Below the pieces are notes generated by a model. It made no database searches and was not told the DNA's origin. It was given only the letters and a program-made list of their open reading frames with translations. Shown one piece after another: positions 2 to 40,360 of a stretch of 64,000 bases of DNA (its first letter is position 1; every line of letters starts with the position of its first letter). The position numbers and the translations under genes were made by a program. The stretch is from an uncultured Candidatus Saccharibacteria bacterium (GTDB taxonomy: Bacteria; Patescibacteriota; Minisyncoccia; Phycocordibacterales; UBA9973): assembly GCA_964484005.1 (NCBI GenBank), contig CAZADR010000003.1:24910-88909 (forward strand), given 5' to 3'.

Positions 2-667
2 GGAATAACTAGAAAAATATTAGTTACTAAAACTTCAGAATGTCTCACTTGTAAAAGTTCTGGAGCTAAAGCTGGTTCTAAAATGGAAACTTGTAAACAT
101 TGCAACGGTCAAGGAAAAATTCATGAACAAAAGAGAACAATCTTTGGAACTATTGCCAACACAAAAATCTGCGAGGCTTGTATGGGTGCAGGTGAAGTGC
201 CAAAAGAAATTTGTGAAAAATGTAAAGGCAAAGGAGTGCTCCGCCGAGAAGAAGAAATATCTATTGTTATTCCAGCCGGTATCCGAGATGGTGAGATGAT
301 AAGAATGACTGGTCACGGTGAAGCAATTTTCAAAGGCACTGCCGGAGACTTGTATATCAAAATAAATGTTACTCCTCATCCTGTATTCAAGCGCGAAGGA
401 AGTGACTTGGTGATGAATTTAAATTTGAATCTTTCTGATGCATTACTCGGTACAAAATATCCTATAAAAACTTTAGACGGAGATATTGAAGTTACTATCC
501 CAGAAGGGGTTTCTATTAATGAAATATTAAGGGTGCGAGGTAAAGGTGTGCCAATGTCTAAAAATAAAAGAGGGGATTTGCTTATTAAGCTTCATATAAA
601 ACTTCCCGAAAAACTCTCTCGTAAATCCCGCGAACTCATCGAAGAACTCAAAAAAGAGGGAATATAA
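2..667 (+). CDS. dnaJ: Chaperone DnaJ, C-terminal part (5' end lies outside the window)
   Basis: The frame is open from nt 2. It encodes CxxCxGxG zinc-finger repeats (CLTCKSSG, CKHCNGQG, CEACMGAG, CEKCKGKG) followed by a DnaJ C-terminal domain. Confidence 0.85.
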   Translation, partial: GITRKILVTKTSECLTCKSSGAKAGSKMETCKHCNGQGKIHEQKRTIFGTIANTKICEACMGAGEVPKEICEKCKGKGVLRREEEISIVIPAGIRDGEMIRMTGHGEAIFKGTAGDLYIKINVTPHPVFKREGSDLVMNLNLNLSDALLGTKYPIKTLDGDIEVTIPEGVSINEILRVRGKGVPMSKNKRGDLLIKLHIKLPEKLSRKSRELIEELKKEGI

Positions 668-1257
668 TGGTATTGGAACAAACAATTGCATATGTCGCTA
701 TTTTTATTCAACTGATTGGAGTTTTTTTCTATATAAGGGGAATGTGGAGAGGCTCAACGAAACCCAACCGAGTGACCTGGATAATTTGGGCTCTTGCCCC
801 ACTTATAGGTTCTTGGCTTTCCTGGAAGGCGGGAGCGGGTTTGTCGGTGTTGCCAGTATTTATGGCTGGATTTAATCCGGTCTTAGTTCTTGTCGCATCT
901 TTTGTAATAAAAAATGGATATTGGCATATCACAAAATTTGATATTTATTGTGGAGTTCTTGCAGTTTTTGCATTAATTATTTGGGTTGTTACAAATAATT
1001 TTGCTATATCTATATTGTTTGCAATATTGAGTGACGGGCTGGCTGCTCTTCCAACGATTATTAAATCTTGGAAATATCCAGAAACTGAAACCCCTTCGGC
1101 TTATGTGGGTGGAGTCATCGCAAATATTTTAGGACTTTTAATTATTAAAAAATGGGTATTTTCTATATATTCATTAGGAGTTTACTTTATTTTAGTAAAC
1201 CTTGTGATAATTTTTTCTATATATCGCAAAAAGATTTTATTTTGGTATAATCAATAA
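667..1257 (+). CDS. Hypothetical polytopic membrane protein
   Basis: 196 aa, very hydrophobic, about 6 predicted TM helices. No family recognised. Confidence 0.5.
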   Translation: MVLEQTIAYVAIFIQLIGVFFYIRGMWRGSTKPNRVTWIIWALAPLIGSWLSWKAGAGLSVLPVFMAGFNPVLVLVASFVIKNGYWHITKFDIYCGVLAVFALIIWVVTNNFAISILFAILSDGLAALPTIIKSWKYPETETPSAYVGGVIANILGLLIIKKWVFSIYSLGVYFILVNLVIIFSIYRKKILFWYNQ

Positions 1258-1258
1258 C

Positions 1259-2107
1259 ATGCAAGAAGAAAACGAATTTGATAATTTTTTAGGAATACCA
1301 GAGATTTTACCAGAGGACTCAGATGTCCTCATTTTGCCTATTCCGCTAGAGCTCACTGTGAGCTATGGAAAAGGCACAAAAAACGGCCCAAAGGCAATAA
1401 TAGAAGCCTCAAAGCATGTGGAGCTATATGATCACGAGCTTGGTTATGAGGTAGACAGTAAGGTTAAAATAGCTACCTTGCCTGCAGTCGAAATTAATAC
1501 TGAAGTTCCAGAAGAGGCACAAAAAATCATTTCAAAAGCCATAGAACCATGGACAGAAAAATTTGTTTTAAGTCTAGGAGGAGAACACTCTATCACTCCA
1601 GCGCTCATAAGTGAATATCAAAAAAAATATTCTGATTTATCTATTTTGTATTTCGATGCACATACTGATATGAGAGAGGAATGGGGTGGAACAAAATGGT
1701 CTCATGCTTGTGCGGCACGAAGATGCCAAGAAGGGGGAATAAAAAATATAGTTTGGGTCGGCACCAGAAATACTGCATTATCTGAACAACAATACATAAA
1801 TACTGAACAGGTAAATTATGGAAATAAATACGATTTGAAAAAAATCTTGAGTCAGCTATCTCCAAATGTTTATATTTCTTTTGATATTGATTGTTTTGAT
1901 GTGTCTACTATGCCAGCTACGGGCACACCTGAGCCGGGAGGAATAAGTTGGTATCAAGCGATGGAAATATTTGAAGCTGTGACTAGGGAGAAAAATGTAG
2001 TTGGAGCAGATATCGCTGAATGCGCACCAATAGAAAAACTGCATGGGTATGATTTCTTGGTAGCTAAACTCGCTTTCAAACTAATTGGTTATAAATTTAG
2101 AAAATAG
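1259..2107 (+). CDS. speB: Arginase/agmatinase-family ureohydrolase
   Basis: Ureohydrolase motifs GGEHSIT, DAHTDMR and SFDIDCFD (Mn-binding Asp/His). Confidence 0.65.
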   Translation: MQEENEFDNFLGIPEILPEDSDVLILPIPLELTVSYGKGTKNGPKAIIEASKHVELYDHELGYEVDSKVKIATLPAVEINTEVPEEAQKIISKAIEPWTEKFVLSLGGEHSITPALISEYQKKYSDLSILYFDAHTDMREEWGGTKWSHACAARRCQEGGIKNIVWVGTRNTALSEQQYINTEQVNYGNKYDLKKILSQLSPNVYISFDIDCFDVSTMPATGTPEPGGISWYQAMEIFEAVTREKNVVGADIAECAPIEKLHGYDFLVAKLAFKLIGYKFRK

Positions 2108-2152: not shown

Positions 2153-2204
2153 CACGGGTTAGTTGTTTATATTAACCATTAATTTTCTCTAGAAAGGAGA
2201 AAAC

Positions 2205-2642
2205 ATGAAATTTGGTCTGATTGAAATGGATCGAACGATTCCTCCGACCTACCCCCTTTGGAAGAAAAGGTTGCTCCATCCTGAGCTCGAGTGTGCAGGC
2301 CCTGACGAGTACTACCTTTCGTCCGTTGGACTCTGGCTTCTTGAAGAGCAGAAGCAGAGAGAAGTCAAGGGAAACGTTGTTTTCAATTTCCTGGAAAGTG
2401 CTTCTTTGTTTAAGTCCTGCCTGAACTTGCAGGACGGACTTGCAATCCAGGGAAAGGGCATCATGCCTTTCCGGGAGCTTTTTGGTGGCATGGCTGTATT
2501 CCTCTGGGCCTCCGCCGTGGAGAGTCAGAACGAGCAGGATAGTGTCCCATACCTCTACGAGCAATGGGGTAAAGTTGAAATCGCCTGGCATTGGCTCGAT
2601 GATACCTGGGACCGCTGGCGCCCCGCGCTCATCTTCCAATAA
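2205..2642 (+). CDS. Hypothetical protein, 145 aa, Trp-rich; compositionally foreign (GC around 50%)
   Basis: Strong RBS (aaAGGAGaaaac-ATG), its own promoter and terminator, and codon usage unlike neighbouring genes. No recognisable domain. Confidence 0.6.
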   Translation: MKFGLIEMDRTIPPTYPLWKKRLLHPELECAGPDEYYLSSVGLWLLEEQKQREVKGNVVFNFLESASLFKSCLNLQDGLAIQGKGIMPFRELFGGMAVFLWASAVESQNEQDSVPYLYEQWGKVEIAWHWLDDTWDRWRPALIFQ

Positions 2643-5489: not shown

Positions 5490-5526
5490 TTAAAAAGCCC
5501 CGCAATAAGCACGGGGCTTTTTGTTG
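5490..5526. terminator. Bidirectional rho-independent terminator between rplU and the 5551-5784 gene
   Basis: Hairpin aaagccccg-caataag-cacggggcttt with T-runs on both sides. Confidence 0.7.
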
Positions 5527-5550
5527 CGGGGCGAGATCGATGATCCGGCT

Positions 5551-5784
5551 CTATCTTGGCACGATGTTTCTTGCCCAGAGCTTGCCGTTGTACTTGCACT
5601 TGCTCGGCACGAAGAATACGTCACGGGTCGAGCAAGTTGCGTTGTAGTCGAAGCACATGTCATACAACACACTGGCCTCGTCGTCCTTGACTCGGTAGGT
5701 ATTGCCGTCGTTGGCAATGATTTCCATTACGAACTTGCTTGCGGTGAACTTGCGAAGAACCAGGTCCCCAGTTAACTGACACAT
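5551..5784 (-). CDS. Hypothetical small protein, 77 aa, 4 Cys; compositionally foreign (higher GC)
   Basis: A perfect AGGAGG RBS lies 7 nt upstream of the ATG. The promoter is consensus TTGACA/TATAAT. A terminator follows downstream. No recognisable domain. Confidence 0.6.
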   Translation of the reverse strand: MCQLTGDLVLRKFTASKFVMEIIANDGNTYRVKDDEASVLYDMCFDYNATCSTRDVFFVPSKCKYNGKLWARNIVPR

Positions 5785-5793
5785 TTAAAGACC

Positions 5794-5835
5794 CCTCCTA
5801 ATACACATTATACACCTTTAAGAATATTTTGTCAA
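5794..5835 (-). promoter_or_regulatory. Consensus sigma70 promoter (TTGACA, 16-17 nt spacer, TATAAT) plus AGGAGG RBS of the 5551-5784 gene
   Basis: On the minus strand: TTGACAaaatattctaaaggtgTATAATgtgtattAGGAGGggtctttaaATG. An 8-4-8 palindrome aaatagac-tatt-gtctattt lies just upstream at 5833-5852. Confidence 0.6.
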
Positions 5836-6571: not shown

Positions 6572-7957
6572 GTCAAGATCACCACCAATTTTTGATGGAG
6601 CAAATTCGCTGATGTTGCTCTTTTCAAGGTTCAAGAAGGTGGTGGTTTTTTCGTCGAAGTAGAGCTCTACTTTTCCGGTTGGACCATTGCGGTGTTTTTC
6701 AACTAAAATTTCAGCAATGTTTGTCTTTTCAGATTCATCTTTACCTTTATCTTCGCGGTGGATAAACATTACGACATCGGCGTCTTGTTCGATAGAACCA
6801 GAGTCTCGAAGGTCTGAAAGGCGAGGCTTGCCACCACGAGATTCCACAGCACGAGAAAGCTGAGAAAGAGCCAACACAGGCACATCTAGTTCTTTGGCGA
6901 GACTCTTTAGAGATCTTGAAATTTCAGTGACTTGGTTTACCATAGAATCATAATTTTTTGAAGTTGTCATGAGCTGTAAGTAGTCGACGACGATAAGGTC
7001 TAGTCCTTTTTCGGCTTTTATTCTACGAGACAAAGCTTTCATTCTTACTATAGAGTTTCCTGGAGTATCATCGATAAAGATTTGTGCCTTAGCAAGCTTG
7101 TCTAAAGAATCTCGAAGTTGTGAAAATTCTCTGTCTGAAGACAAGCGTCCGGTGCGCAAGTTCCAAGCATTGACTCTGGATTCTGCAGAGAGCATGCGGT
7201 CTACGAGTTGTTGAGAAGACATTTCTAGCGAGAATATTAAAATGGATTTTTCGTGTATTACTCCTGCCATACGGGCTACATCGAGGGCCAGAGTGGTTTT
7301 ACCCATCGAAGGTCTAGCAGCCAAAATAATAAGATCTGATTTTTGGAAACCTGAAAGCATTGTGTCTAGTTCTTTAAATCCACTAGGAAGACCGCGAAGC
7401 ATTCCTTTATTCTCGTGCAGTTTTTCCATTCGCTCATAAGCTTCAGGTAAGGCGTCTTTTAAATTTACATATTTTTGATTTTTAGGAGAGGATACAACGT
7501 GAAAGATTTTTTTCTCTGCCAAGTCTAAGATATCATCCATGTGGTCATCTCCTTCTTCAAAAGCAAGCTCGGAGACATAATCGGCTGCTTCAATCAAACT
7601 TCGGAGGACATATTTTTTTTGGACAATATCGGCGTAGTGTTTTACGTTTGTAGAAGAGGGAACGACATTTACAATCTCGGCGAGATATTGATTGCCACCA
7701 ATAGCTTCCAGTAATTTTTGTTCACTTAGTTTTGTAGAAAGGGAGAGCATATCTATCGGTTCATTCTTTACTGAAAGGTCGAGCATGGCACTGAAAATCA
7801 TTTTGTGTTTTTCAACATAGAAAGATTCAGCAGTCACCATATCCTCGACTTCATGCATCGCTTCTTTTCGGAGCATAATAGAACCAAGAACTGCTTGTTC
7901 GGATGGTATGCTTTGTGGAGGAATTCGAAGATTATTATTTTTTGCTATTTTTACCAT
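6563..7957 (-). CDS. dnaB: Replicative DNA helicase DnaB
   Basis: DnaB N-terminal domain. Walker A ARPSMGKTTLAL. RecA-like C-terminal domain. 464 aa. Confidence 0.92.
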   Translation of the reverse strand: MVKIAKNNNLRIPPQSIPSEQAVLGSIMLRKEAMHEVEDMVTAESFYVEKHKMIFSAMLDLSVKNEPIDMLSLSTKLSEQKLLEAIGGNQYLAEIVNVVPSSTNVKHYADIVQKKYVLRSLIEAADYVSELAFEEGDDHMDDILDLAEKKIFHVVSSPKNQKYVNLKDALPEAYERMEKLHENKGMLRGLPSGFKELDTMLSGFQKSDLIILAARPSMGKTTLALDVARMAGVIHEKSILIFSLEMSSQQLVDRMLSAESRVNAWNLRTGRLSSDREFSQLRDSLDKLAKAQIFIDDTPGNSIVRMKALSRRIKAEKGLDLIVVDYLQLMTTSKNYDSMVNQVTEISRSLKSLAKELDVPVLALSQLSRAVESRGGKPRLSDLRDSGSIEQDADVVMFIHREDKGKDESEKTNIAEILVEKHRNGPTGKVELYFDEKTTTFLNLEKSNISEFAPSKIGGDLDEF

Positions 7958-8048
7958 GAAGCCATTCTATCACGATAGAAAAATTGTCAAAGTGATAAAG
8001 TTGGTAAAGATGTTATTAAAATGTGAACAAATATGATAATATTTAAGT

Positions 8049-9008
8049 ATGTCAAAAAAGATAGTATTATCAGGGGTTCAGGCTTCAGGTAAGCCTCATA
8101 TTGGTAATTATTTTGGTGCTCTTAGGCAATTTGTGGAGCTATCACAGACCCACGATTGTTTTTTTATGATAGCGGACTATCATGCTTTGCATTCTCTTAG
8201 AAATCCAAAGGAGATGAGTGAAAATATTAAAAATGTTTTACTTGATTATTTAGCTATTGGTCTTGATCCCAAAAATGTAACAATTTTTAAACAAAGTGAT
8301 ATTTTGGAACACACCGAACTCGCTTGGATTTTTGATACGATTATTACCATGCCATATCTGATGCGAGCTCATGCTTTTAAAGATGCGCAAGCAAAAAATA
8401 AAGAAATAGATGTCGGCACCTTCAATTACCCTGTGCTTATGGCTGCAGATATTTTACTCTACAGTCCTGACGTTGTGCCTGTCGGTGCTGATCAAAAACA
8501 ACATGTTGAGATAGCTCGCGACATAGCAGAAAAATTTAATAATGTTTATGGAAACGGAGAAGAAACTTTCAAGCTTCCAGAGCCAATGATATTGAAAGAT
8601 GTAGCGGTGGTGCCCGGAACCGATGGACGCAAGATGAGCAAGAGCTACGGAAACACTATTCCTTTATTTGCTTCTCATGAAGAAATTAAAAAATGCGTGA
8701 TGAGTATCGTCACAGATTCAAGCGGAGAACTTCCTCAAAATGTATATGCTATTCACAAGCTCGTGCGACCCGAAGATGAATTAAAAAAAATATATGCTGA
8801 GAAAGCAGGTAAGTACAAAGAGCTCAAAGAAATGCTCGTAGAAGATTTGGAAAAATTTATCGCACCACTTCGCGAAAAAAGAAAAGAATTTGAAAAAGAT
8901 ATTCCAAAAGCACTTGAAATCTTGAAAATGGGTGGTGAAAAAGCGAAGAGTATCGCTTCTAAGAAGATGCAAGAAGTGCGGGAAAAAATCGGAGTGAATA
9001 TTTATTAG
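8049..9008 (+). CDS. trpS: Tryptophan--tRNA ligase
   Basis: HIGH motif (KPHIGNYFGA) and KMSKS (KMSKSYGN). 319 aa, class Ic. Confidence 0.9.
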   Translation: MSKKIVLSGVQASGKPHIGNYFGALRQFVELSQTHDCFFMIADYHALHSLRNPKEMSENIKNVLLDYLAIGLDPKNVTIFKQSDILEHTELAWIFDTIITMPYLMRAHAFKDAQAKNKEIDVGTFNYPVLMAADILLYSPDVVPVGADQKQHVEIARDIAEKFNNVYGNGEETFKLPEPMILKDVAVVPGTDGRKMSKSYGNTIPLFASHEEIKKCVMSIVTDSSGELPQNVYAIHKLVRPEDELKKIYAEKAGKYKELKEMLVEDLEKFIAPLREKRKEFEKDIPKALEILKMGGEKAKSIASKKMQEVREKIGVNIY

Positions 9009-9040: not shown

Positions 9041-10426
9041 ATGAAAAATCGCATTTATATAAAAGATTTAAAAGACAATGTAGGAAAAGAGGTTACTATT
9101 GCTGGATGGGTGGATGTCAGGCGTGACCAAGGCAAGATGGTCTTTTTTGATATGCGAGACATGACCGGGAAAATTCAATGCGTTACTTTGACAATTCATC
9201 CTGAAGCTTTAGAGAAAGCAAAAGAGATTCGCTCTGAATGGGTTCTCGAAGTTAAAGGTTTAGTCAATGAGCGCAAGGATAAAAATGCAGAAAAGGGTGG
9301 CGGTGTTGAGATTGAAGTTACTGATATTGTTGTCTTAAACAAAGCTGAGACTTCACCTTTTCAAATAAATGAAAGTACTGCAGGCATAAACGAGGATTTG
9401 AGAATGAAATACAAATATCTAGATTTGCGTACAGAGAGAATGCAGAAAAATATTCGTATGCGAGATAAAATAATTTCTTTTTTCCGTAAATATATGCACG
9501 ACAATGATTTTATAGAAATTGAAACTCCTATTTTGATGAAAGGTACACCCGAGGGTTCCAGAGAATATGTAGTACCTTCTAGGCTTTTTAATGGGCAGTT
9601 TTATGTCTTACCCCAATCTCCTCAGCAATTTAAGCAGCTTTGTATGGTGGCTGGATTTGAAAAATATTTTCAAGTAGCTCGTTGCATGAGAGATGAAGAT
9701 ACCAGGGGAGATAGGCAGCCAGAATTTACTCAGTTAGATTTTGAGATGTCTTTTATAACGCAAGAAGAAGTTTTGGAATATACCGAAAAAATGTTTATTG
9801 AGCTTATTAAAAATGTTTATCCTGATAAAAAAATAAGCCAAATTCCTTTTCCGAGAATATCTTATGCAGAATCAATAAAAAAATATGGTTCTGATAAACC
9901 CGATATGAGAATAAATAAAGACGACCCAAACGAGCTAGCTTTTGCTTGGATATTGGATTTCCCAATGTTTGAAAAGACTGACGATGGAGAGCTTCAAGCG
10001 GTGCACCATCCATTTTGCTCAATAAAAGAGGAAGACAAAGAAAAATTTTTAAAAGGAGAAGACTTGTTTTCTATCCGTGCCAACGCTTATGACCTCGTAT
10101 TAAATGGCTATGAACTTTCTTCTGGTAGTATTCGTATTCACGAACGAGAAATTCAAAAACAAGTTTTCAGGCTTTTGAATATTAGTGAAGAAGAACAGCA
10201 AAAGAAATTTGGACACATGCTGGAAGCATTTACTTATGGTGCTCCTCCTCATGGTGGTTTTGCTCCGGGGATAGACCGTATTGTTATGATATTGCAAAAT
10301 GAACCAAATATTAGAGAAGTGATAGCTTTTCCAAAAACTGGAGAAGGAAGAGATTTAATGATGGGCTCTCCAGCACCAATAACTGAAAAGCAATTGAAAG
10401 AACTTGGAATAAAATTAGGTAAGTAA
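9041..10426 (+). CDS. aspS: Aspartate--tRNA ligase (short form lacking the GAD insertion; probably non-discriminating)
   Basis: N-terminal OB fold. Class II motifs FYVLPQSPQQFKQ, RDEDTRGDRQPEFTQLDFEM and GGFAPGIDR. Confidence 0.75.
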   Translation: MKNRIYIKDLKDNVGKEVTIAGWVDVRRDQGKMVFFDMRDMTGKIQCVTLTIHPEALEKAKEIRSEWVLEVKGLVNERKDKNAEKGGGVEIEVTDIVVLNKAETSPFQINESTAGINEDLRMKYKYLDLRTERMQKNIRMRDKIISFFRKYMHDNDFIEIETPILMKGTPEGSREYVVPSRLFNGQFYVLPQSPQQFKQLCMVAGFEKYFQVARCMRDEDTRGDRQPEFTQLDFEMSFITQEEVLEYTEKMFIELIKNVYPDKKISQIPFPRISYAESIKKYGSDKPDMRINKDDPNELAFAWILDFPMFEKTDDGELQAVHHPFCSIKEEDKEKFLKGEDLFSIRANAYDLVLNGYELSSGSIRIHEREIQKQVFRLLNISEEEQQKKFGHMLEAFTYGAPPHGGFAPGIDRIVMILQNEPNIREVIAFPKTGEGRDLMMGSPAPITEKQLKELGIKLGK

Positions 10427-34029: not shown

Positions 34030-34308
34030 TTACTTTTTAAGTAAGGCAAGTTTGGTTTTAGTGCCACCTTTTCCAGAATATCCACCAATGGAGCCATCAC
34101 TCCTTATTACTCTATGACAAGGTATTTTTATTGTTACAGGATTAGCTCCGACAGCATTTGCTACGGCCCTGATTGCTTTTGGCTTATTTATTTTTTTCGC
34201 GAGTTCTTTATAGGTAATAGTTTTTCCTTTTGGAATTTGAAGCAAAGACTTCCAAACCTTTTTCTGAAAGTCTGTGCCTTTTAATTTATTAATATTTATA
34301 TTCGGCAT
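34030..34308 (-). CDS. ogt: Methylated-DNA--protein-cysteine methyltransferase (DNA-binding/active-site domain only)
   Basis: Active-site PCHRVI motif. 92 aa, so a C-terminal MGMT domain alone. Confidence 0.8.
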   Translation of the reverse strand: MPNININKLKGTDFQKKVWKSLLQIPKGKTITYKELAKKINKPKAIRAVANAVGANPVTIKIPCHRVIRSDGSIGGYSGKGGTKTKLALLKK

Positions 34309-34314
34309 AAATTT

Positions 34315-34662
34315 TTAGTAAAAGGATAAAATTATTCTGAGTATTACTATCAATAAACCAGTGATAAAAATGGTTCCAAAAATCTGCTTGTTGTATTTTG
34401 CTAATTTTTCTGGAAGATAAATATCAAAATTAGCTTCCCTGTTCTCGGTATATTTCATTGCCATTGGCGTCAAAGGACAAAACCATTTATTTACAAATAG
34501 TACTAGAGATTCTAAAACTAAAAGCCCTATCGAAATCCAGAGCCAGATAGAAAATATTCCGATTACTCCTGCGTAGAATATATATATTGTAGCCGAGGCC
34601 ATAACCACCCAAACTGCCGTATGTAAGATTTTTATAAGAGCAAGTACGGTTTCATTTTTCAT
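34315..34662 (-). CDS. Hypothetical membrane protein
   Basis: 115 aa with 3 TM helices and a WFCPLTP motif. Confidence 0.45.
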   Translation of the reverse strand: MKNETVLALIKILHTAVWVVMASATIYIFYAGVIGIFSIWLWISIGLLVLESLVLFVNKWFCPLTPMAMKYTENREANFDIYLPEKLAKYNKQIFGTIFITGLLIVILRIILSFY

Positions 34663-34675
34663 TGTTTTATTATAT

Positions 34676-34709
34676 CAAAAAAGAAAAAGCAGACCTATGC
34701 CAGATCTGC
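34676..34709 (-). terminator. Rho-independent terminator of the 34695-34955 gene (its hairpin contains the stop codon)
   Basis: gcagatctggcataggtctgc hairpin followed by tttttcttttttt on the minus strand. Confidence 0.65.
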
Positions 34710-34955
34710 TTTGTTTTGAAAAACTTGAATGTCAGCTTCATTGATTTCCCAGTGTATGGTGCATCGATCCTCCTCATTGGGATCACAGCAGTCACACTCC
34801 CAGTCATCTTCCCACGCGAAAAATTTTCCGTTGGGGGTTTTGATGACATGTATGTCATGATTCCTGCCCTTGAGGATGCACTCAGCCAAGTAGCCTTCAC
34901 TCGGGTAATAGCCAGTCATCTGCCATTGCCTTGGAGCAATCTTTCCACAAGTCAT
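34695..34955 (-). CDS. Hypothetical Cys-rich small protein, 86 aa (CDCC...C cluster); compositionally foreign
   Basis: AGGAGG RBS 6 nt upstream of the ATG (aaAGGAGGctcttt-ATG). Its own promoter and terminator. GC is well above neighbouring genes. Confidence 0.6.
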   Translation of the reverse strand: MTCGKIAPRQWQMTGYYPSEGYLAECILKGRNHDIHVIKTPNGKFFAWEDDWECDCCDPNEEDRCTIHWEINEADIQVFQNKADLA

Positions 34956-35067
34956 AAAGAGCCTCCTTTCTGAAATTATCCTAGCTTATGACACAACAAG
35001 AAGCAAATAAGAATCTGATGGATTTTTACTCAGATTTATGTTATAAATTATAATGTTTTTAAGAAAT

Positions 35068-35138
35068 TGGGAGATCGTCTAACGGTAGGACAGCGGCCTT
35101 TGAAGCCGTGAATCTTGGTTCGATTCCAAGTCTCCCAG
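35068..35138 (+). tRNA. tRNA-Gln (anticodon UUG)
   Basis: Cloverleaf: acceptor tgggaga/tctccca (U1-A72, as in bacterial tRNA-Gln), anticodon loop cTTTGaa, T-loop ttcgatt. No CCA encoded. Confidence 0.85.
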
Positions 35139-35160
35139 CAAATTCTGGTATAATAAAAAC

Positions 35161-35784
35161 ATGCCAAAAGAAAATTGGGATACCCAACACATAAAATATG
35201 CAGAAGCTGAATGGATAGATAAACCTAGTATATTTGCGCAAAATGCAATTAAATTTTTTCCAGATACTGGGAATATTGTTGACTTGGGTTGTGGTCAAGG
35301 ACAGGACTCAAGATTTTTTGCTCAACATGGCTACAATGTTGTAGGGGCAGATTTTTCAAGTGAAGCAATTAAAATTGCTAAGGAAAAAAGTAAAGATTTA
35401 GATTTTAAAGTTTTAGACATTTCAAAACCTCTTCCTTTCGAAGATACATCTTTTGATGTTGTGTATTCCCATCTTGCTGTCCACTATTTTAATAAAGAAA
35501 CAACAGAATTAATTTTCAAAGAATTATCTCGTATCCTAAAAAAGGATGGTGTCCTAGCAATTTTTGTTAATTCAGTGAATGATCCAGAGTATGGAACTGG
35601 CACACAAATTGAAGAAGACTATTTTGCTATTGGAAACATGCAGAAACGTTATTTTAGCCAAGAATCCCTAAAGCATTATGTTGAGGGATTTGAACCTTTG
35701 CTATTAGACGAGAAAGGTGAAACATATAAAGACAGGGCAGTTGGTGTTTCAAACTTAGTCCAGTTCATAGGAAGAAAGATTTAA
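35161..35784 (+). CDS. Class I SAM-dependent methyltransferase
   Basis: Motif I VDLGCGQGQD. Methyltransf_11-like fold. 207 aa. Confidence 0.8.
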   Translation: MPKENWDTQHIKYAEAEWIDKPSIFAQNAIKFFPDTGNIVDLGCGQGQDSRFFAQHGYNVVGADFSSEAIKIAKEKSKDLDFKVLDISKPLPFEDTSFDVVYSHLAVHYFNKETTELIFKELSRILKKDGVLAIFVNSVNDPEYGTGTQIEEDYFAIGNMQKRYFSQESLKHYVEGFEPLLLDEKGETYKDRAVGVSNLVQFIGRKI

Positions 35785-35868
35785 GGCGGTTCCAACGTCG
35801 TGCCAGACTCCCAGCTCGTCGTTTAAGCTATATAAAATAATATAAATAGGTTTAATCCTAAATAATTT

Positions 35869-36036
35869 TTAACTCAATTTTTTCCATCTATGAGTCTTTT
35901 TTCTATTACTGCAATTGGCACATTTGAAATCATCAGGAACATCTTCCCATTTGGTGCCAGGTGCTATTCCTCTTTCGGGATATCCTTTTATTTCGTCATA
36001 TATCCACCCGCAATCTGAACATTGATATTTAGACAT
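35869..36036 (-). CDS. Rubredoxin-like protein (55 aa; below the ORF-track cutoff)
   Basis: MSKYQCSDCGWIYDE...GIAPGTKWEDVPDDFKCANCS: the first motif CxxCG is canonical, and the second is CANCS where CPxCG is usual. Sits immediately downstream of dnaX on the same strand. Confidence 0.65.
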   Translation of the reverse strand: MSKYQCSDCGWIYDEIKGYPERGIAPGTKWEDVPDDFKCANCSNRKKTHRWKKLS

Positions 36037-36041
36037 AAATT

Positions 36042-37082
36042 TTATTTATCTTCTGAAATTATTTTTACAAGTGCAAGTTCTAACGGCAATTCGGTGATAA
36101 AGGCATTGTCCATATTTTGATATGCTTCTAGAAGTATAGATAGTGCCGGTGAGCGCAGCATACCGTCTTTATCATCTTTTACGAGCTTTTTTAGAAATTC
36201 TAAATCACCTTCTGAAAGGTCTCCGGTCATTTCTTCTTGCAGTTTTGGAGCATAGCGCAGGATTATCGCCATACGAAATTTTTGCAGGATGAGCTTGAAG
36301 TATAATTGCATATCTAAATTTGCTTCGGAAGCAATTCTTACCGCTCCTATTCCCTTTTCTATATTCTTTTCGGCGATGGCGGAAATAAAATCATTTACTA
36401 AAACTGTTTTTGGTGCGCCAGTAATCTTTTCTATATCTTCTCTTGATATTTTCTTTCCTTTTGAGAAGTTTAAAACTTTCTGAAGCTCACCTAAGGCATC
36501 TCGGAATGAACCATCTGCTAATATTGCAAGGAGCTCGGCGCTTCCGGCATCCATTTCAAATCCTTCCTTTTTGGCGACATCGAGGAGCATCTTTTTGCAG
36601 ACAGTGTCAGACGCTTTTTTAAATGTAAAAACCTGACAGCGAGAAATAATTGTATCCGGGACTTTGTGAAATTCTGTTGTAGCTAAAATAAAGATGACAT
36701 GCTTTGGGGGTTCTTCCAGAGTTTTCAAAAGCGCACCCCAAGCATCTTTGGAGAGCATGTGCACCTCGTCTATGATGTAGACTTTGTATTTTGAATCAAA
36801 AGGTAATACTCGCACTCCATCTCGTAATTCTTTGATATCTTCAATTCCTCTGTTTGATGCAGCGTCTATTTCATATAAATCATTTACAGATACTCCGATG
36901 CTCGTTGCAAAGATTCTGGCCACAGAAGTCTTACCTGTGCCCCTAGAGCCAACAAATAGATAAGCATGGGAGACTTTGTTTGTGTCCACAGAGCTCTCCA
37001 AAACTTTTGTAATATGGTCTTGTCCGAGGACTTCTTTAAAGCTTTTTGGCCTGTATTTACGATATAAAGCTAAATCATGCAT
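36042..37082 (-). CDS. dnaX: DNA polymerase III subunit gamma/tau (short form)
   Basis: Walker A GSRGTGKTS. AAA+ clamp-loader motifs. 346 aa. Confidence 0.88.
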   Translation of the reverse strand: MHDLALYRKYRPKSFKEVLGQDHITKVLESSVDTNKVSHAYLFVGSRGTGKTSVARIFATSIGVSVNDLYEIDAASNRGIEDIKELRDGVRVLPFDSKYKVYIIDEVHMLSKDAWGALLKTLEEPPKHVIFILATTEFHKVPDTIISRCQVFTFKKASDTVCKKMLLDVAKKEGFEMDAGSAELLAILADGSFRDALGELQKVLNFSKGKKISREDIEKITGAPKTVLVNDFISAIAEKNIEKGIGAVRIASEANLDMQLYFKLILQKFRMAIILRYAPKLQEEMTGDLSEGDLEFLKKLVKDDKDGMLRSPALSILLEAYQNMDNAFITELPLELALVKIISEDK

Positions 37083-38099: not shown

Positions 38100-39033
38100 T
38101 GAACTTAAAGTAAACCTTATTTCCGAAGCGTAAGTCAATATACTGCAATAAGGAGTATTTATTTTTCATTTTTGATTTTAAGGGTTCGGTAGTTATGGCA
38201 GCGTCTAAGTTTTCAGCAACATTTTGGAAGTCGGCATCAATCTTTAAAAGTATCTTTGGATTTTCGGATGAAAGTGCTCCTTTTGAAAGATATATTTCTA
38301 CATCACCATCTTCTTTTATATAAAGTTGTGTTGGTTTTAGTTTTAGATCAGATAAAAAGTTCTTAAAGAAGACAAGCTGGCTAAAACTTTGTTCTGAAAA
38401 ATAAGAACCTTGTGGATTTTCAATATTTAAATTATTTTTGCCATAAAATTTGAAATAAACTTCACCAGAAAAATATGGAGCTTCAACAAAAGTAAAACCC
38501 TCTTCATCTAAAAAGTAGCATTTCTCTTCGGTATTTTCTTCTGTGGGTATAGATGCTCCGCACCACAAGTATTTTGCAGTTCTTTCATCTAAAGATACTG
38601 TGAGGATTTTGTTATCTTTTATGGTTAGGTTTATGTTCTTTAATCTTTTAAAGTTATTTTCTAGGGCACTTTGTATAGAATTTTTAGGATAAGACAAGAC
38701 ATTTGTTTTAGGAAAGAGCCAGAGATATTTTCCAGATATTTCTTTCAATATTGTTTCTTCTAATAAAACAGTTTCAATTGTTTTATTACCTACAATTTCT
38801 ATTTTTGAAATATTTAGTTTTTCTATACGAGAGACATAAGCTAAAAAAGCAAAAATCGCCGTAAGTCCGAACAGCGAAATAAAAATCTTGCTCCAAATAG
38901 CCTTCTTTCGGCTCTTTTTTAATTCCAAAAGGCGTGGAGAATTTAAAACATTTCTTTTTTGCATTGATTTCGCGAAATCATGCCGCGCAACCGTCCATTT
39001 TAGCGCGGCTTTACTTGATAAACTCTTTTCCAC
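38092..39033 (-). CDS. FtsQ/DivIB-like cell-division protein (TM + POTRA)
   Basis: Cytoplasmic N-terminus, one TM helix, POTRA-like ISKIEIVGNKTI..., beta-rich C-terminus. Confidence 0.5.
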   Translation of the reverse strand: MEKSLSSKAALKWTVARHDFAKSMQKRNVLNSPRLLELKKSRKKAIWSKIFISLFGLTAIFAFLAYVSRIEKLNISKIEIVGNKTIETVLLEETILKEISGKYLWLFPKTNVLSYPKNSIQSALENNFKRLKNINLTIKDNKILTVSLDERTAKYLWCGASIPTEENTEEKCYFLDEEGFTFVEAPYFSGEVYFKFYGKNNLNIENPQGSYFSEQSFSQLVFFKNFLSDLKLKPTQLYIKEDGDVEIYLSKGALSSENPKILLKIDADFQNVAENLDAAITTEPLKSKMKNKYSLLQYIDLRFGNKVYFKFNE

Positions 39034-40318
39034 CCATGTAAGGCTTCAATACGGGAGGAATCTTTATAGAACCATCTTCTTGCTGATAGTTTTCAATGAT
39101 AGCAATCAAAGTACGGCCGATAGCGATAACAGTGGCATCGTTCATATGTACGGGTTCTATTTTCCCATCACTTCTTCGTACTCTGGTATTTAGGCGACGA
39201 GATTGAAATCCTCCAGTAGAATCTGAGCTATGAGTTTCTCTGTATTTATTTTGTCCTGGCATCCATGTTTCAACATCAATCTGTCTATTGTCTGGAAAGC
39301 CCATGTCTCCAGTACACACAGCCACTACTTGATAAGGTAGATTTAAAACTTTTAAAACATGTTCTTGTATTGCAACAAGAAAATTTTGTTCTTGCATTGA
39401 ATTTTCGGGTAAAGAAAAAACTTCCATTTCCAATTTATCAAATTGGTGTTGTCGTAAAATACCATTTGTGTCTTTTCCTGCGGCACCAGCTTCCCTCCTG
39501 AATGCAGTCGAATATCCAGCATATCTAATTGGTAAATCTTTTTCTTCAAAAATTTTATTCATATGCATTGAACCGAGAGTATGTTCAGCGCTTCCTATCA
39601 GCATCAAGTTGTCGTTTGGGAACATATAATGTTCTTCTGGGGTCATAAATCGAGCCATCTTTACTTGAACAATAGGACGAATAAAAACGGGTGGAATGAT
39701 AGGTAGAAATTTTGAAGGAGTTATGGACACTTTTGCTTCTTCTGCTATTTTTTTGAGAGTTTCTTCATTGGTAAGGATTTCTAAACACATTTGTATTAAA
39801 GCAAATTGCATTATAACCAAATCCCCTTTTAGATATGAATATCTTGCACCTGCAACATCTGCGGCAGTCTCGGTATCTATTATCCCCAAAGCTTTTCCTA
39901 ATTCAAAATGTTCTTTTGGTGTAAAAGAAAATTGTGTTTTTTCTCCCCAATTTCTTATTACTTGGTTTCCACTATCGTCAGGACCTTCGGGCGTATCAAC
40001 AGAAGGAATGTTTGGTATTTTCAACATTATTTTCTGCCACTCGTCCATGGTTTCTTTTAATTTTTCTTCTTTTGCCTTGATGTCGTCTTTGACGAGGCGC
40101 ATCTCTTCTATCAACTGGATTTTGAGGGCGGAATCTTGATTGCGGCCAATGTCGTTTGAGACGCGGTTTACTTCACTGCGTAAGTCTTCCACTTCTTTTA
40201 ATTCTTTTAATCGCAAATCGTCCAAGGTAATCAACTTTTCAATATCAATTTCAATGCGCTTTTTCTTGGCGCCTGCCTGTACTATGTCTTTGTTTTCACG
40301 AATAAATTTTATGTCTAA
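39011..40318 (-). CDS. serS: Serine--tRNA ligase
   Basis: N-terminal coiled coil. Class II catalytic core. The canonical start is MLDIKFIREN at 40318; the ORF extends to 40342. Confidence 0.9.
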   Translation of the reverse strand, partial: LDIKFIRENKDIVQAGAKKKRIEIDIEKLITLDDLRLKELKEVEDLRSEVNRVSNDIGRNQDSALKIQLIEEMRLVKDDIKAKEEKLKETMDEWQKIMLKIPNIPSVDTPEGPDDSGNQVIRNWGEKTQFSFTPKEHFELGKALGIIDTETAADVAGARYSYLKGDLVIMQFALIQMCLEILTNEETLKKIAEEAKVSITPSKFLPIIPPVFIRPIVQVKMARFMTPEEHYMFPNDNLMLIGSAEHTLGSMHMNKIFEEKDLPIRYAGYSTAFRREAGAAGKDTNGILRQHQFDKLEMEVFSLPENSMQEQNFLVAIQEHVLKVLNLPYQVVAVCTGDMGFPDNRQIDVETWMPGQNKYRETHSSDSTGGFQSRRLNTRVRRSDGKIEPVHMNDATVIAIGRTLIAIIENYQQEDGSIKIPPVLKPYMGGKEFIK

Positions 40319-40360
40319 CATGATTAGTAGTATATAATACAATTGTCATAATTACAAAAC

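Follow-up and report, generated by a model that had tools for sequence, protein, structure and literature searches.

A gene for an acidic protein of 86 amino acids (aa) lies beside a tRNA-Gln gene in a stretch of 64,000 nucleotides (nt) of contig CAZADR010000003.1, from an uncultured bacterium of the Candidate Phyla Radiation (CPR, or Patescibacteria); this whole stretch is called the window here. An earlier note on this DNA, made from the sequence alone, had taken the gene for a foreign-looking cassette. The explanation that accounts best for the results, and to which we give a probability of roughly 0.6, is that the gene is real and autonomous, that its product belongs to a new family and is likely a two-zinc protein, and that the window copy is a xenologous allele in a tRNA-Gln hotspot, with a speculative role in genetic conflict. 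Loci used for comparison carry numbers; those whose product of the neighboring DnaX gene is 84-96% aa identical are L018 and L030-L034.

Organization of the 86-aa gene

The gene and its signals are as follows.

34695..34955, minus strand: coding sequence of the 86-aa gene, for an acidic protein with a Cys6His2-type signature from an unannotated family (list of open reading frames [ORFs], family searches, predicted fold, and ratio of nonsynonymous to synonymous substitution [dN/dS])
34967-34962, minus strand: Shine-Dalgarno sequence AGGAGG, 6 nt (ctcttt) before the ATG at 34955
34978..35006, minus strand: probable promoter of the 86-aa gene, with a -35 element TTGCTT (35006-35001), a 17-nt spacer, and a -10 element TAGGAT (34983-34978) followed by AAT
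34676..34712, minus strand: intrinsic terminator of the 86-aa gene, a 12-bp stem (34712-34686) plus a T-tract

The ORF, the AGGAGG motif, the TTGCTT-17-TAGGAT promoter, the terminator hairpin that contains the stop codon, and the adjacent tRNA-Gln had all been described in the earlier note, and each was recovered in the sequence; the ORF runs from an ATG to a TAG codon, and 112 nt separate its ATG from the 5' end of the tRNA. A purine-rich, Shine-Dalgarno-like motif was also found just 5' of the start codon in most of 13 homologues. A consensus promoter scanner made no call at TTGCTT-17-TAGGAT, because the -35 element matches TTGACA at just three of six positions. The equivalent position upstream of the family gene in L030 and L018 carries TTGCTT-16/17-TATGAT, and it is this conservation, in place of a strong consensus match, that makes the promoter a probable one.

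At the other end of the gene, the TAG stop codon (34697-34695) forms the first bases of the 3' arm of the terminator, which folds at -15.7 kcal/mol (z = -4.8; equaled by 0 of 200 shuffles) and whose stem shows compensatory changes in L030 and L018. The same design, in which the last codons form the 5' arm and the stop codon lies in the loop or 3' arm, was observed at 10 of 13 family loci (the window, L005, L010-L012, L014, L015, L018, L019, L021, L024, L025, and L030). Since the last codons double as a hairpin arm, the variable C-terminal tail of the family protein is partly set by the hairpin. Directly past the T-tract, an extended -10 sequence, TGaTATAAT, precedes the next gene (start at 34662), and the 86-aa ORF is therefore monocistronic. 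Judged from these signals, the gene is a genuine, self-contained expression unit with a sigma-70-like promoter, a strong Shine-Dalgarno sequence, and an intrinsic terminator laid over its stop codon.

A longer ORF of 103 aa runs antisense over the same DNA (34662-34973, plus strand) and was the one selected by a longest-ORF picker. The chance that this ORF, or no gene at all, explains the region is negligible. The antisense frame stays open only through the makeup of the sense gene, whose three Leu codons (ttg, ctc, and ctg) and single Ser codon (agt) include no TTA, CTA, or TCA, and no antisense ORF of at least 70 aa lies over the L018 homologue. The sense product, in contrast, has 213 family clusters, conserved Cys and His residues, a Shine-Dalgarno sequence, a terminator, and a confident predicted fold, and for practical purposes the antisense reading is already refuted.

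A new protein family with two likely zinc sites

The 86-aa product, of about 10 kDa, has a pI of 4.6 (also the family median) and a net charge of -8 and contains six Cys and three His residues. This agrees with the earlier description of an acidic protein with a CxCC...C cluster, and the Cys/His cluster proved to be conserved family-wide. The window protein had no Pfam match (E <= 1) and no PADLOC match, and its best PHROG and NCBIfam matches had an E value of 0.15; 60 family members compared with Pfam and PHROGs gave nothing consistent, the family profile had 0 matches among PDB sequences at E <= 10, and the family was not described in the literature searched. Among 5.8 billion proteins, a word-indexed search returned only three relatives. 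When 1.84 billion cluster representatives were searched exhaustively with a profile, 213 clusters, defined at 50% identity, were returned at E <= 1e-3, 64 of which were at E <= 1e-10. Members are mostly 70-105 aa long, and none of ten clusters looked up was named; ten longer members (122-280 aa) had no Pfam domain in their extensions and no known fusion.

Among 157 aligned sequences, Cys3, Cys26, His36, Trp48, Asp51, Cys54, Cys56, Cys57, and Cys65 were each conserved in at least 87%. Cys3 was present in all 130 sequences that reach the N terminus; Cys3, Cys26, His36, Cys54, and Cys65 were present in at least 95% of the sequences covering each position, Cys57 in 90%, and Cys56 in 87%. His32 was found in 145 of 157 (92%), the window protein having N32/H33 instead, and His36 was replaced by Cys in 2 of 157. 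Glu49 was present in 77%, and Arg9 was present in about two-thirds of the sequences covering that position and was nearly invariant in the 60 closest. The C-terminal block kept its four Cys residues through several spacing variants (CxCC-x7-C, 53; CxCxxC-x7-9-C, 28; CxxC...CxC, few). Eight Cys/His positions thus behave as metal ligands do, being near-invariant, exchanging His for Cys, and keeping their number despite changes in spacing. The CxCC...C cluster that the earlier note had proposed as a metal site shares this behavior but is only half of the eight-ligand signature, which includes two His residues. One ligand group would comprise Cys3, Cys26, His32/33, and His36, and the other would comprise the four Cys residues at 54-65 (CxCC-x7-C). 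These would most likely form a pair of tetrahedral sites for structural zinc, in the simplest case one Cys2His2 and one Cys4; it counts against this proposal that metal binding, the identity of the metal, and the partition of the ligands are all read from conservation.

Between family alleles with a measurable synonymous divergence (dS), dN/dS was 0.09-0.14, and by this measure the protein is under purifying selection. An AlphaFold model built with four sequences was mediocre (predicted local distance difference test score [pLDDT], 70), while one built with 60 sequences reached a pLDDT of 90.4 and a predicted template modeling score of 0.80. In the latter model, strands span residues 36-39, 45-50, and 66-71, and a helix spans residues 75-85; the predicted fold is a three-stranded beta-sheet with a C-terminal helix, in a cytoplasmic protein. 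Foldseek found nothing significant against PDB (with the first, poorer model) or against BFVD. The family is therefore classed as new, broadly among the small Cys/His metal-stabilized proteins, with no entry in a curated library and no confident fold neighbor.

The earlier note had offered a small metal or redox protein or an inhibitor. The conserved ligand-like residues support the metal part of that suggestion, and they do not decide between redox protein and inhibitor. Small Fe proteins abound in CPR bacteria, which are anaerobes or fermenters, and a redox or iron protein with a housekeeping or stress role, be it an electron carrier of the Fe(Cys)4 or Fe-S type or a buffer or chaperone for metals, would be in keeping with a four-Cys block conserved by number and not by spacing and with the rubredoxin encoded 0.9 kb away. 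Like rubredoxin (PF00301), the 86-aa protein is small and acidic, with a predicted four-Cys metal site. However, rubredoxins are marked by two CxxC(G) knuckles about 30 residues apart, whereas the 86-aa family lacks such knuckles, has the pattern C3, C26, CxCC-x7-C, and differs further in its extra Cys2His2 set and predicted topology. Membership in the rubredoxin family was rejected, as there was no Pfam match at E <= 1, to rubredoxin or to ferredoxin, and hhalign gave the family profile a probability of 0.3% against the window rubredoxin. Moreover, a second site of two His and two Cys residues is typical of structural zinc, the rubredoxin gene was absent wherever homologues were examined, and a patchy, horizontally exchanged distribution would be unusual for a core redox carrier. 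On this evidence, a redox or iron protein is improbable, and nothing ties the 86-aa gene to the neighboring rubredoxin, which occupies a separate variable segment.

Two other groups of small acidic proteins of about 80 aa, the Kti11/Dph3 CSL zinc fingers and the WhiB-like (Wbl) proteins, use four Cys residues to bind Zn/Fe or a 4Fe-4S cluster, and the Wbl spacing C...CxxC-x5-C loosely recalls C26...C54-x2-C57-x7-C65 of the 86-aa protein. Neither the protein nor its family members had a Pfam match to Kti11 or Wbl. The Foldseek matches to Kti11 were nonsignificant (E 1.4-1.8, with the poorer first model), and Wbl proteins are all-alpha, unlike the beta-rich model obtained here.

The tRNA-Gln locus as a two-sided hotspot

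Comparison of the locus with its relatives points to the 86-aa gene as accessory cargo in a fast-turnover hotspot that extends on both sides of tRNA-Gln. The window features on which the comparison was based are the following.

35068..35139, plus strand: tRNA-Gln(UUG), the conserved hotspot anchor, divergent from the 86-aa gene (tRNA calls)
35025..35054, plus strand: promoter-like site for tRNA-Gln, TTTACT-18-TATAAT, found by the scanner inside the conserved tRNA-proximal spacer
34310..35017: variable segment A, on the 5' side of the tRNA, with the 86-aa gene and a 115-aa gene with multiple transmembrane segments (34315-34662, minus strand)
35170..36060: variable segment B, on the 3' side of the tRNA, with the methyltransferase, a GC-rich stretch at 35788-35830, and the rubredoxin
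35161-35784, plus strand: class-I S-adenosylmethionine (SAM) methyltransferase (Methyltransf_11, E 4e-23)
35869-36036, minus strand: rubredoxin (PF00301, E 1e-18)
36042..37082, minus strand: DnaX/HolB-type clamp-loader gene, conserved on this flank and used to retrieve relatives (aa identity in L018 and L030-L034, 84-96%)
34030..34308, minus strand: MGMT-like gene (PF01035), the conserved other flank (85% aa identical in L031)

Close homologues of the window DnaX number in the thousands and bear the names Candidatus Paceibacterota, Nomurabacteria, or Minisyncoccia, which makes the host a CPR bacterium of the Parcubacteria type. Gene orders, written with DnaX on the plus strand and with DnaX identity to the window in parentheses, were as follows.

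Window: rubredoxin, methyltransferase(-), tRNA-Gln(-), family gene(+), 115-aa membrane protein, MGMT ... Cyt-b5-DoxX-IMPDH
L030 (about 95-96%): SWEET, HAD, 107 aa, 109 aa, PCC (all -), tRNA-Gln(-), family gene(+), DUF1761, glyoxalase
L031 (95%): left side as in L030 but with a 63-aa ORF and without PCC; tRNA-Gln(-); right side DUF3850, glyoxalase, two ORFs, MGMT ... IMPDH; family gene absent
L032/33 (90%): GIY-YIG, tRNA-Gln(+), 87 aa, PBP2; family gene absent
L034 (88%): 235 aa, tRNA-Gln(+), other ORFs, IMPDH; family gene absent
L018 (86%): family gene(-), tRNA-Gln(+), large serine recombinase (Resolvase + Recombinase + Zn_ribbon_recom)
L005 (53%): tRNA-Gln(+), two low-GC genes, family gene, NUDIX, 16S
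L019 (partial DnaX): GIY-YIG, tRNA-Gln(+), a DNA methyltransferase and a possible restriction endonuclease (recognized by eye only), further ORFs, two peptidase-like ORFs, family gene

Near the tRNA, DNA homology between the window and L031 (blastn) covers 35018-35169 only and resumes at 36061 in DnaX and at 34309 in the MGMT-like gene; homology to L030 likewise ends at 35169 and returns at 36061 in DnaX. Since homology breaks on both sides, two variable segments, 34310-35017 and 35170-36060, flank a conserved tRNA core. That core consists of tRNA-Gln with about 50 nt upstream and about 30 nt downstream only, and its spacer is conserved also in L031, which lacks the family gene. In the interval that corresponds to segment B, relatives have SWEET/HAD/PCC genes, a GIY-YIG gene, a 235-aa ORF, or nothing, and across seven relatives each lineage differs in gene content between DnaX and the next conserved block. 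By the family hidden Markov model, the gene was present in five lineages (the window, L030, L018, L005, and L019) and absent in three (L031, L032/33, and L034), between conserved flanks. We rejected an arrangement in which variation is confined to the 3' side of the tRNA and the gene belongs to a conserved resident flank, as the relatives found through DnaX show absence of the gene, allele incongruence, and variability on both sides.

The earlier note had grouped the methyltransferase, the GC-rich fragment, and the rubredoxin beyond the tRNA into a small islet, and these are indeed absent from relatives whose DnaX is 84-96% identical. Its further suggestion of a tRNA-Gln integration hotspot stood in part: genes turn over on both sides of the tRNA, but the window itself has no integrase, recombinase, or transposase between DnaX and the MGMT-like gene and no significant direct repeat of the tRNA 3' end. 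The window copy is not part of an identifiable integrated element or an intact mobile element. The GC-rich stretch 35788-35830 (43 nt) lies between the convergent methyltransferase and rubredoxin genes and is unique within the window and all fetched loci. It was rejected as an att site or tRNA remnant, since its only match to the 3' end of tRNA-Gln is an 8-mer at chance level (35808-35815; the window has about 80 matches of this kind, and the alignment score of 17 was reached by 134 of 2,000 shuffles). It was also rejected as an RNA element, since it is not notably structured (fold z, -0.7) and has no Rfam match; at the gathering threshold, Rfam found only the three tRNAs in the window.

We also considered whether the protein might be functionally tied to tRNA-Gln, acting on the tRNA itself or on Gln-tRNA synthesis or modification. 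The two genes stand about 110-155 nt apart and divergent in the window, L030, and L017/18; the CUG isoacceptor lies 230 nt upstream on the same strand in L015/L020; the tRNA is 800 nt away and convergent in L012 and 2-5 kb away in L005 and L019; and gene and tRNA have stayed together through local inversions relative to DnaX. However, close relatives retain tRNA-Gln without the family gene, and other members have no tRNA nearby (FtsA-FtsZ, RNase III-SMC, PPase-ClpP, RuvX, reverse transcriptase, and phage contexts), so that a lack of co-occurrence is already partly seen. In addition, the strong acidity of the protein is unfavorable for RNA binding, and the integration scars, integrase, and GIY-YIG genes found at tRNA-Gln account for the adjacency through a hotspot effect. 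A functional tie is therefore considered very unlikely, and cargo of a hotspot remains the preferred description.

Several relatives carry traces of mobile DNA at this position. In L018, a 512-aa large serine recombinase (231-1769, plus strand) ends inside the 3' part of tRNA-Gln (1708-1780, minus strand), with the contig ending just past; it is probably an element integrated at the tRNA. In L032/L033 (7053-7545), a GIY-YIG ORF (7099-7344) has a 5' fragment of tRNA-Gln on one side and a full tRNA-Gln (7365-7436) on the other, and a further tRNA-Gln copy (7455-7545) follows; this copy and the fragment carry an 18-nt palindrome (CCTGCCTGCGCAGGCAGG/GGG) in the D-loop region. The disrupted copy in L032 is 95% identical to the window tRNA, and the intact one is 86% identical. 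Genuine tRNA repeats were found in L015 (18 nt) and L032 (63 nt). The L015 repeat, GAATCCTAGTCCCGCAGC, is the 3' end of tRNA-Gln(CUG) and occurs at 7752-7769 and 7945-7962; it brackets about 175 bp of hairpin-rich DNA, with its second copy 40 nt upstream of the family gene ATG, and is an att-like scar of a largely deleted element. In L005, tRNA-Gln and the family gene are separated by two genes of low GC content (0.33-0.35, against about 0.56 in the host), each followed by a palindrome of about 24 nt, TTGTCSRACACTSRGTGTTCGACAA (about 8866-8895 and 9897-9925), which may represent cassette boundaries or terminators.

In the window, the methyltransferase at 35161-35784 matched mad2 of the MADS defense system in PADLOC (E 7e-22). 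The match spans the methyltransferase-domain part alone (model positions 283-405 of 492), and Pfam types the product as a generic TehB/UbiE-like class-I SAM methyltransferase. A defense-system reading was rejected, as the mad2 match is to a generic methyltransferase domain only and PADLOC had no match for the 86-aa protein.

The window copy as a probable xenologous allele

The window copy looks like a xenologous allele that was swapped horizontally into a slot shared by relatives. With a GC content of 0.464, the gene has a third-codon-position GC content (GC3) of 0.517, compared with a host reference of 0.291 (standard deviation, 0.057) from 57 window ORFs of at least 120 aa. In these larger ORFs, only 93 of 13,120 87-codon windows (0.7%) reached a GC3 of 0.517, and two other odd ORFs accounted for 90 of the 93. 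Peaks of at least 0.46 in local GC content (over 200 nt) are frequent in the 64-kb window, which has 26 of them, and the anomaly is therefore one of third-codon-position GC and not of raw GC. With that refinement, the composition analysis upheld the earlier description of the gene as GC-rich and foreign in composition. Across family members GC3 ranges from 0.33 to 0.53, and across their hosts it ranges from 0.29 to 0.66.

The alleles also disagree with the genomes that carry them. Between the window and L030, DNA identity is 100% in tRNA-Gln, 89% in the tRNA-proximal spacer, 61% in the promoter and 5' untranslated region, and 64% in the family gene; between L030 and L018, the more distant genome pair, the corresponding values are 85%, 86%, 81%, and 76%, and these two alleles are thus closer to each other than either is to that of the window. 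At the protein level, the window and L030 products are 57-58% identical, compared with 92% for DprA, 96% for Dus, about 95-96% for DnaX, and 70% for the least constrained neighbor, of 313 aa. By the NG86 method, dS between the window and L030 is saturated in the family gene but is 0.86 in DnaX and 0.94 in Dus. Family pairwise identities are star-like, at 50-72% regardless of host distance. Composition, saturated dS, and allele incongruence are therefore all discordant with the host. The earlier note had proposed comparing the tRNA-Gln locus across related genomes and had named a gene of host-like composition at that locus throughout the lineage as what would refute it; the comparison did not refute it, as the gene is absent from L031, L032/33, and L034 and the L030 and L018 alleles are far more diverged than their flanks.

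The main competing account holds that the gene is a resident, vertically inherited one that evolves fast outside its ligands and that its high GC3 is an accident of sampling in so short a gene, with no transfer involved. The gene does have only 86 codons, its divergent arrangement at tRNA-Gln is the same in L030 and L018, with promoter and terminator alignable, the DnaX...tRNA-Gln...family-gene neighborhood also occurs in the distant L005 and L019, and the poorly constrained 313-aa neighbor has likewise diverged from L030. However, vertical descent is hard to reconcile with a saturated dS where flanking genes have about 0.9, with closest alleles in L030 and L018 when the window and L030 are the closest genome pair, or with a fall in identity from 100%/89% to 61% about 35 nt from the tRNA, and it leaves the GC3 value in the top 0.7% and the absence of the gene from three related lineages to be explained. 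We regard it as having a small chance of being correct.

Some findings nevertheless weigh against horizontal transfer. The absence of an integrase and of a significant tRNA repeat in the window has been described above. The 115-aa gene in the same variable segment has a host-like GC content, and any transferred piece would therefore be only about 350 bp. With 86 codons, the GC3 and dS estimates are noisy. The same slot, with homologous promoter (TTGCTT-16/17-TAkGAT) and terminator, is found in L030 and L018, and a balanced polymorphism of long standing, or a faster rate of evolution, could give the same picture as horizontal transfer. The shared family, slot, promoter, and terminator also suggest what kind of event is at issue, namely, replacement of an allele and not an insertion peculiar to the window genome. 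The foreign cassette of the earlier note consequently survives in large part, as a gene of foreign composition in a variable region but not as a novel insertion.

The xenologous allele would have come from a higher-GC genome and probably arrived through recombination between the tRNA side, which is conserved, and the cassette or the DNA downstream, in a hotspot between the DnaX block and the MGMT...IMPDH block of a Paceibacteria/Parcubacteria (CPR) genome. A DprA gene is present in the window. As a genomic phenomenon, the tRNA-anchored hotspot of horizontal gene transfer (HGT) is well known. Hotspots that lack recognizable mobile elements and turn over through homologous recombination in their conserved flanks, above all in transformable bacteria, have been described (PMC5635113). 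The window locus resembles the HGT hotspots and tRNA-anchored islets described by Oliveira et al. (2017, PMC5635113) in being a short interval between core genes, beside a tRNA, with rapid turnover, many of those hotspots likewise having no recognizable mobile elements and turning over by homologous recombination at their flanks; and relatives of the window hold integrases, restriction-modification genes, and homing-type nucleases in the same spot. It differs in belonging to a CPR genome of roughly the 1-Mb class, in having two segments of only about 0.7 and 0.9 kb arranged on both sides of the tRNA, and in that the event proposed here is one family allele replacing another and not the gain of a new island.

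A second apparent replacement was observed nearby. The seryl-tRNA synthetase (SerRS; 39011-40342, minus strand) is only 49-54% aa identical to the SerRS of five relatives, in which the adjacent DprA, Dus, and DnaX are 59-92%, 56-96%, and 84-95% identical, respectively. Compared with L030, SerRS has a dN of 0.42 versus 0.02-0.03 for DnaX and Dus, and its GC content is host-like; it looks like an in situ xenologous replacement of an aminoacyl-tRNA synthetase.

Two other GC-rich patches were seen in the window. The strongest (2181-2780, GC content up to 0.565) contains an ORF (2172-2639, minus strand) with a GC3 of 0.56 and a translation that is not protein-like; it had no Rfam match at E <= 0.1 and no tRNA or transfer-messenger RNA, and it is probably another of the foreign-looking cassettes of the earlier note. 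The second (5490-5800, up to 0.54) lies between the genes for ribosomal protein L21 and RecR and contains a small Cys-containing ORF of 77 aa (5551-5784, minus strand) and overlapping plus-strand ORFs.

Links to mobile elements and possible function

The company of the gene in its hotspot (restriction-modification genes, a serine integrase, and GIY-YIG genes), together with one viral homologue beside a Lar-like gene, suggests a role in genetic conflict, in which the protein would bind and modulate a partner, for example as an inhibitor or immunity-type factor. Arg9, Trp48, Glu49, and Asp51, assumed to form a surface patch, would be the functional residues for partner binding. The viral homologue (E 5e-15) was found, via a degenerate DNA pattern, in the IMG/VR temperate-phage contig L035, about 1.9 kb from an integrase; it adjoins the Lar-like restriction-alleviation gene, and further on in the same gene train come a PAPS-reductase-like gene and an HNH gene, the latter about 3.7 kb off. 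Like Lar (PF14354/phrog_599), the product is small and Cys-rich, but the 86-aa family has no sequence similarity to Lar or to any PHROG. The 86-aa unit also resembles phage morons as an autonomous single accessory gene with its own promoter and tight terminator; unlike a moron, the window copy lies in the chromosome and has neither a surrounding prophage nor phage genes nearby.

Other findings speak against such a role. The proposal draws on the flavor of the neighborhood and on one viral homologue. A peptide-pattern scan of IMG/VR, a tblastn search of 50,697 phage records, a Foldseek search of BFVD, and searches of PHROGs and PADLOC gave no matches. Homologues lie between the core genes FtsA-FtsZ (L024), RNase III-SMC (L014), and PPase-ClpP (L021, a 250-aa fusion), and others lie after RuvX (L025) and near a reverse transcriptase (L013); the core-gene settings could equally indicate a housekeeping role. 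There was no constant partner gene, the neighbors differing in every lineage examined. A conflict role is accordingly put forward as doubtful. The wider picture, in which new-fold two-zinc mini-proteins spread as one-gene cassettes among Patescibacteria and mobile elements, serve in genetic conflict, for example by inhibiting a restriction or defense nuclease or as immunity factors, and have their alleles swapped by recombination at tRNA-Gln hotspots in naturally competent CPR cells, is less likely still and is offered as speculation.

Implications

CPR/Patescibacteria genomes are small, with much accessory content that is uncharacterized. The locus described here is an ordinary kind of hotspot that holds an uncharacterized and possibly mobile family of small, probably metal-binding proteins. 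It provides a clean, compact, tRNA-anchored hotspot of gene exchange in a CPR genome, with breakpoints placed at the level of single bases. If the conflict role is not true, the family would be one more conserved hypothetical protein in an ordinary hotspot; if it is true, it would be a class of small anti-defense or immunity proteins from a lineage whose phage-host biology is barely known. As a new family of probable small metalloproteins with a confident predicted structure and no known relatives, it is tractable for structural and biochemical work.

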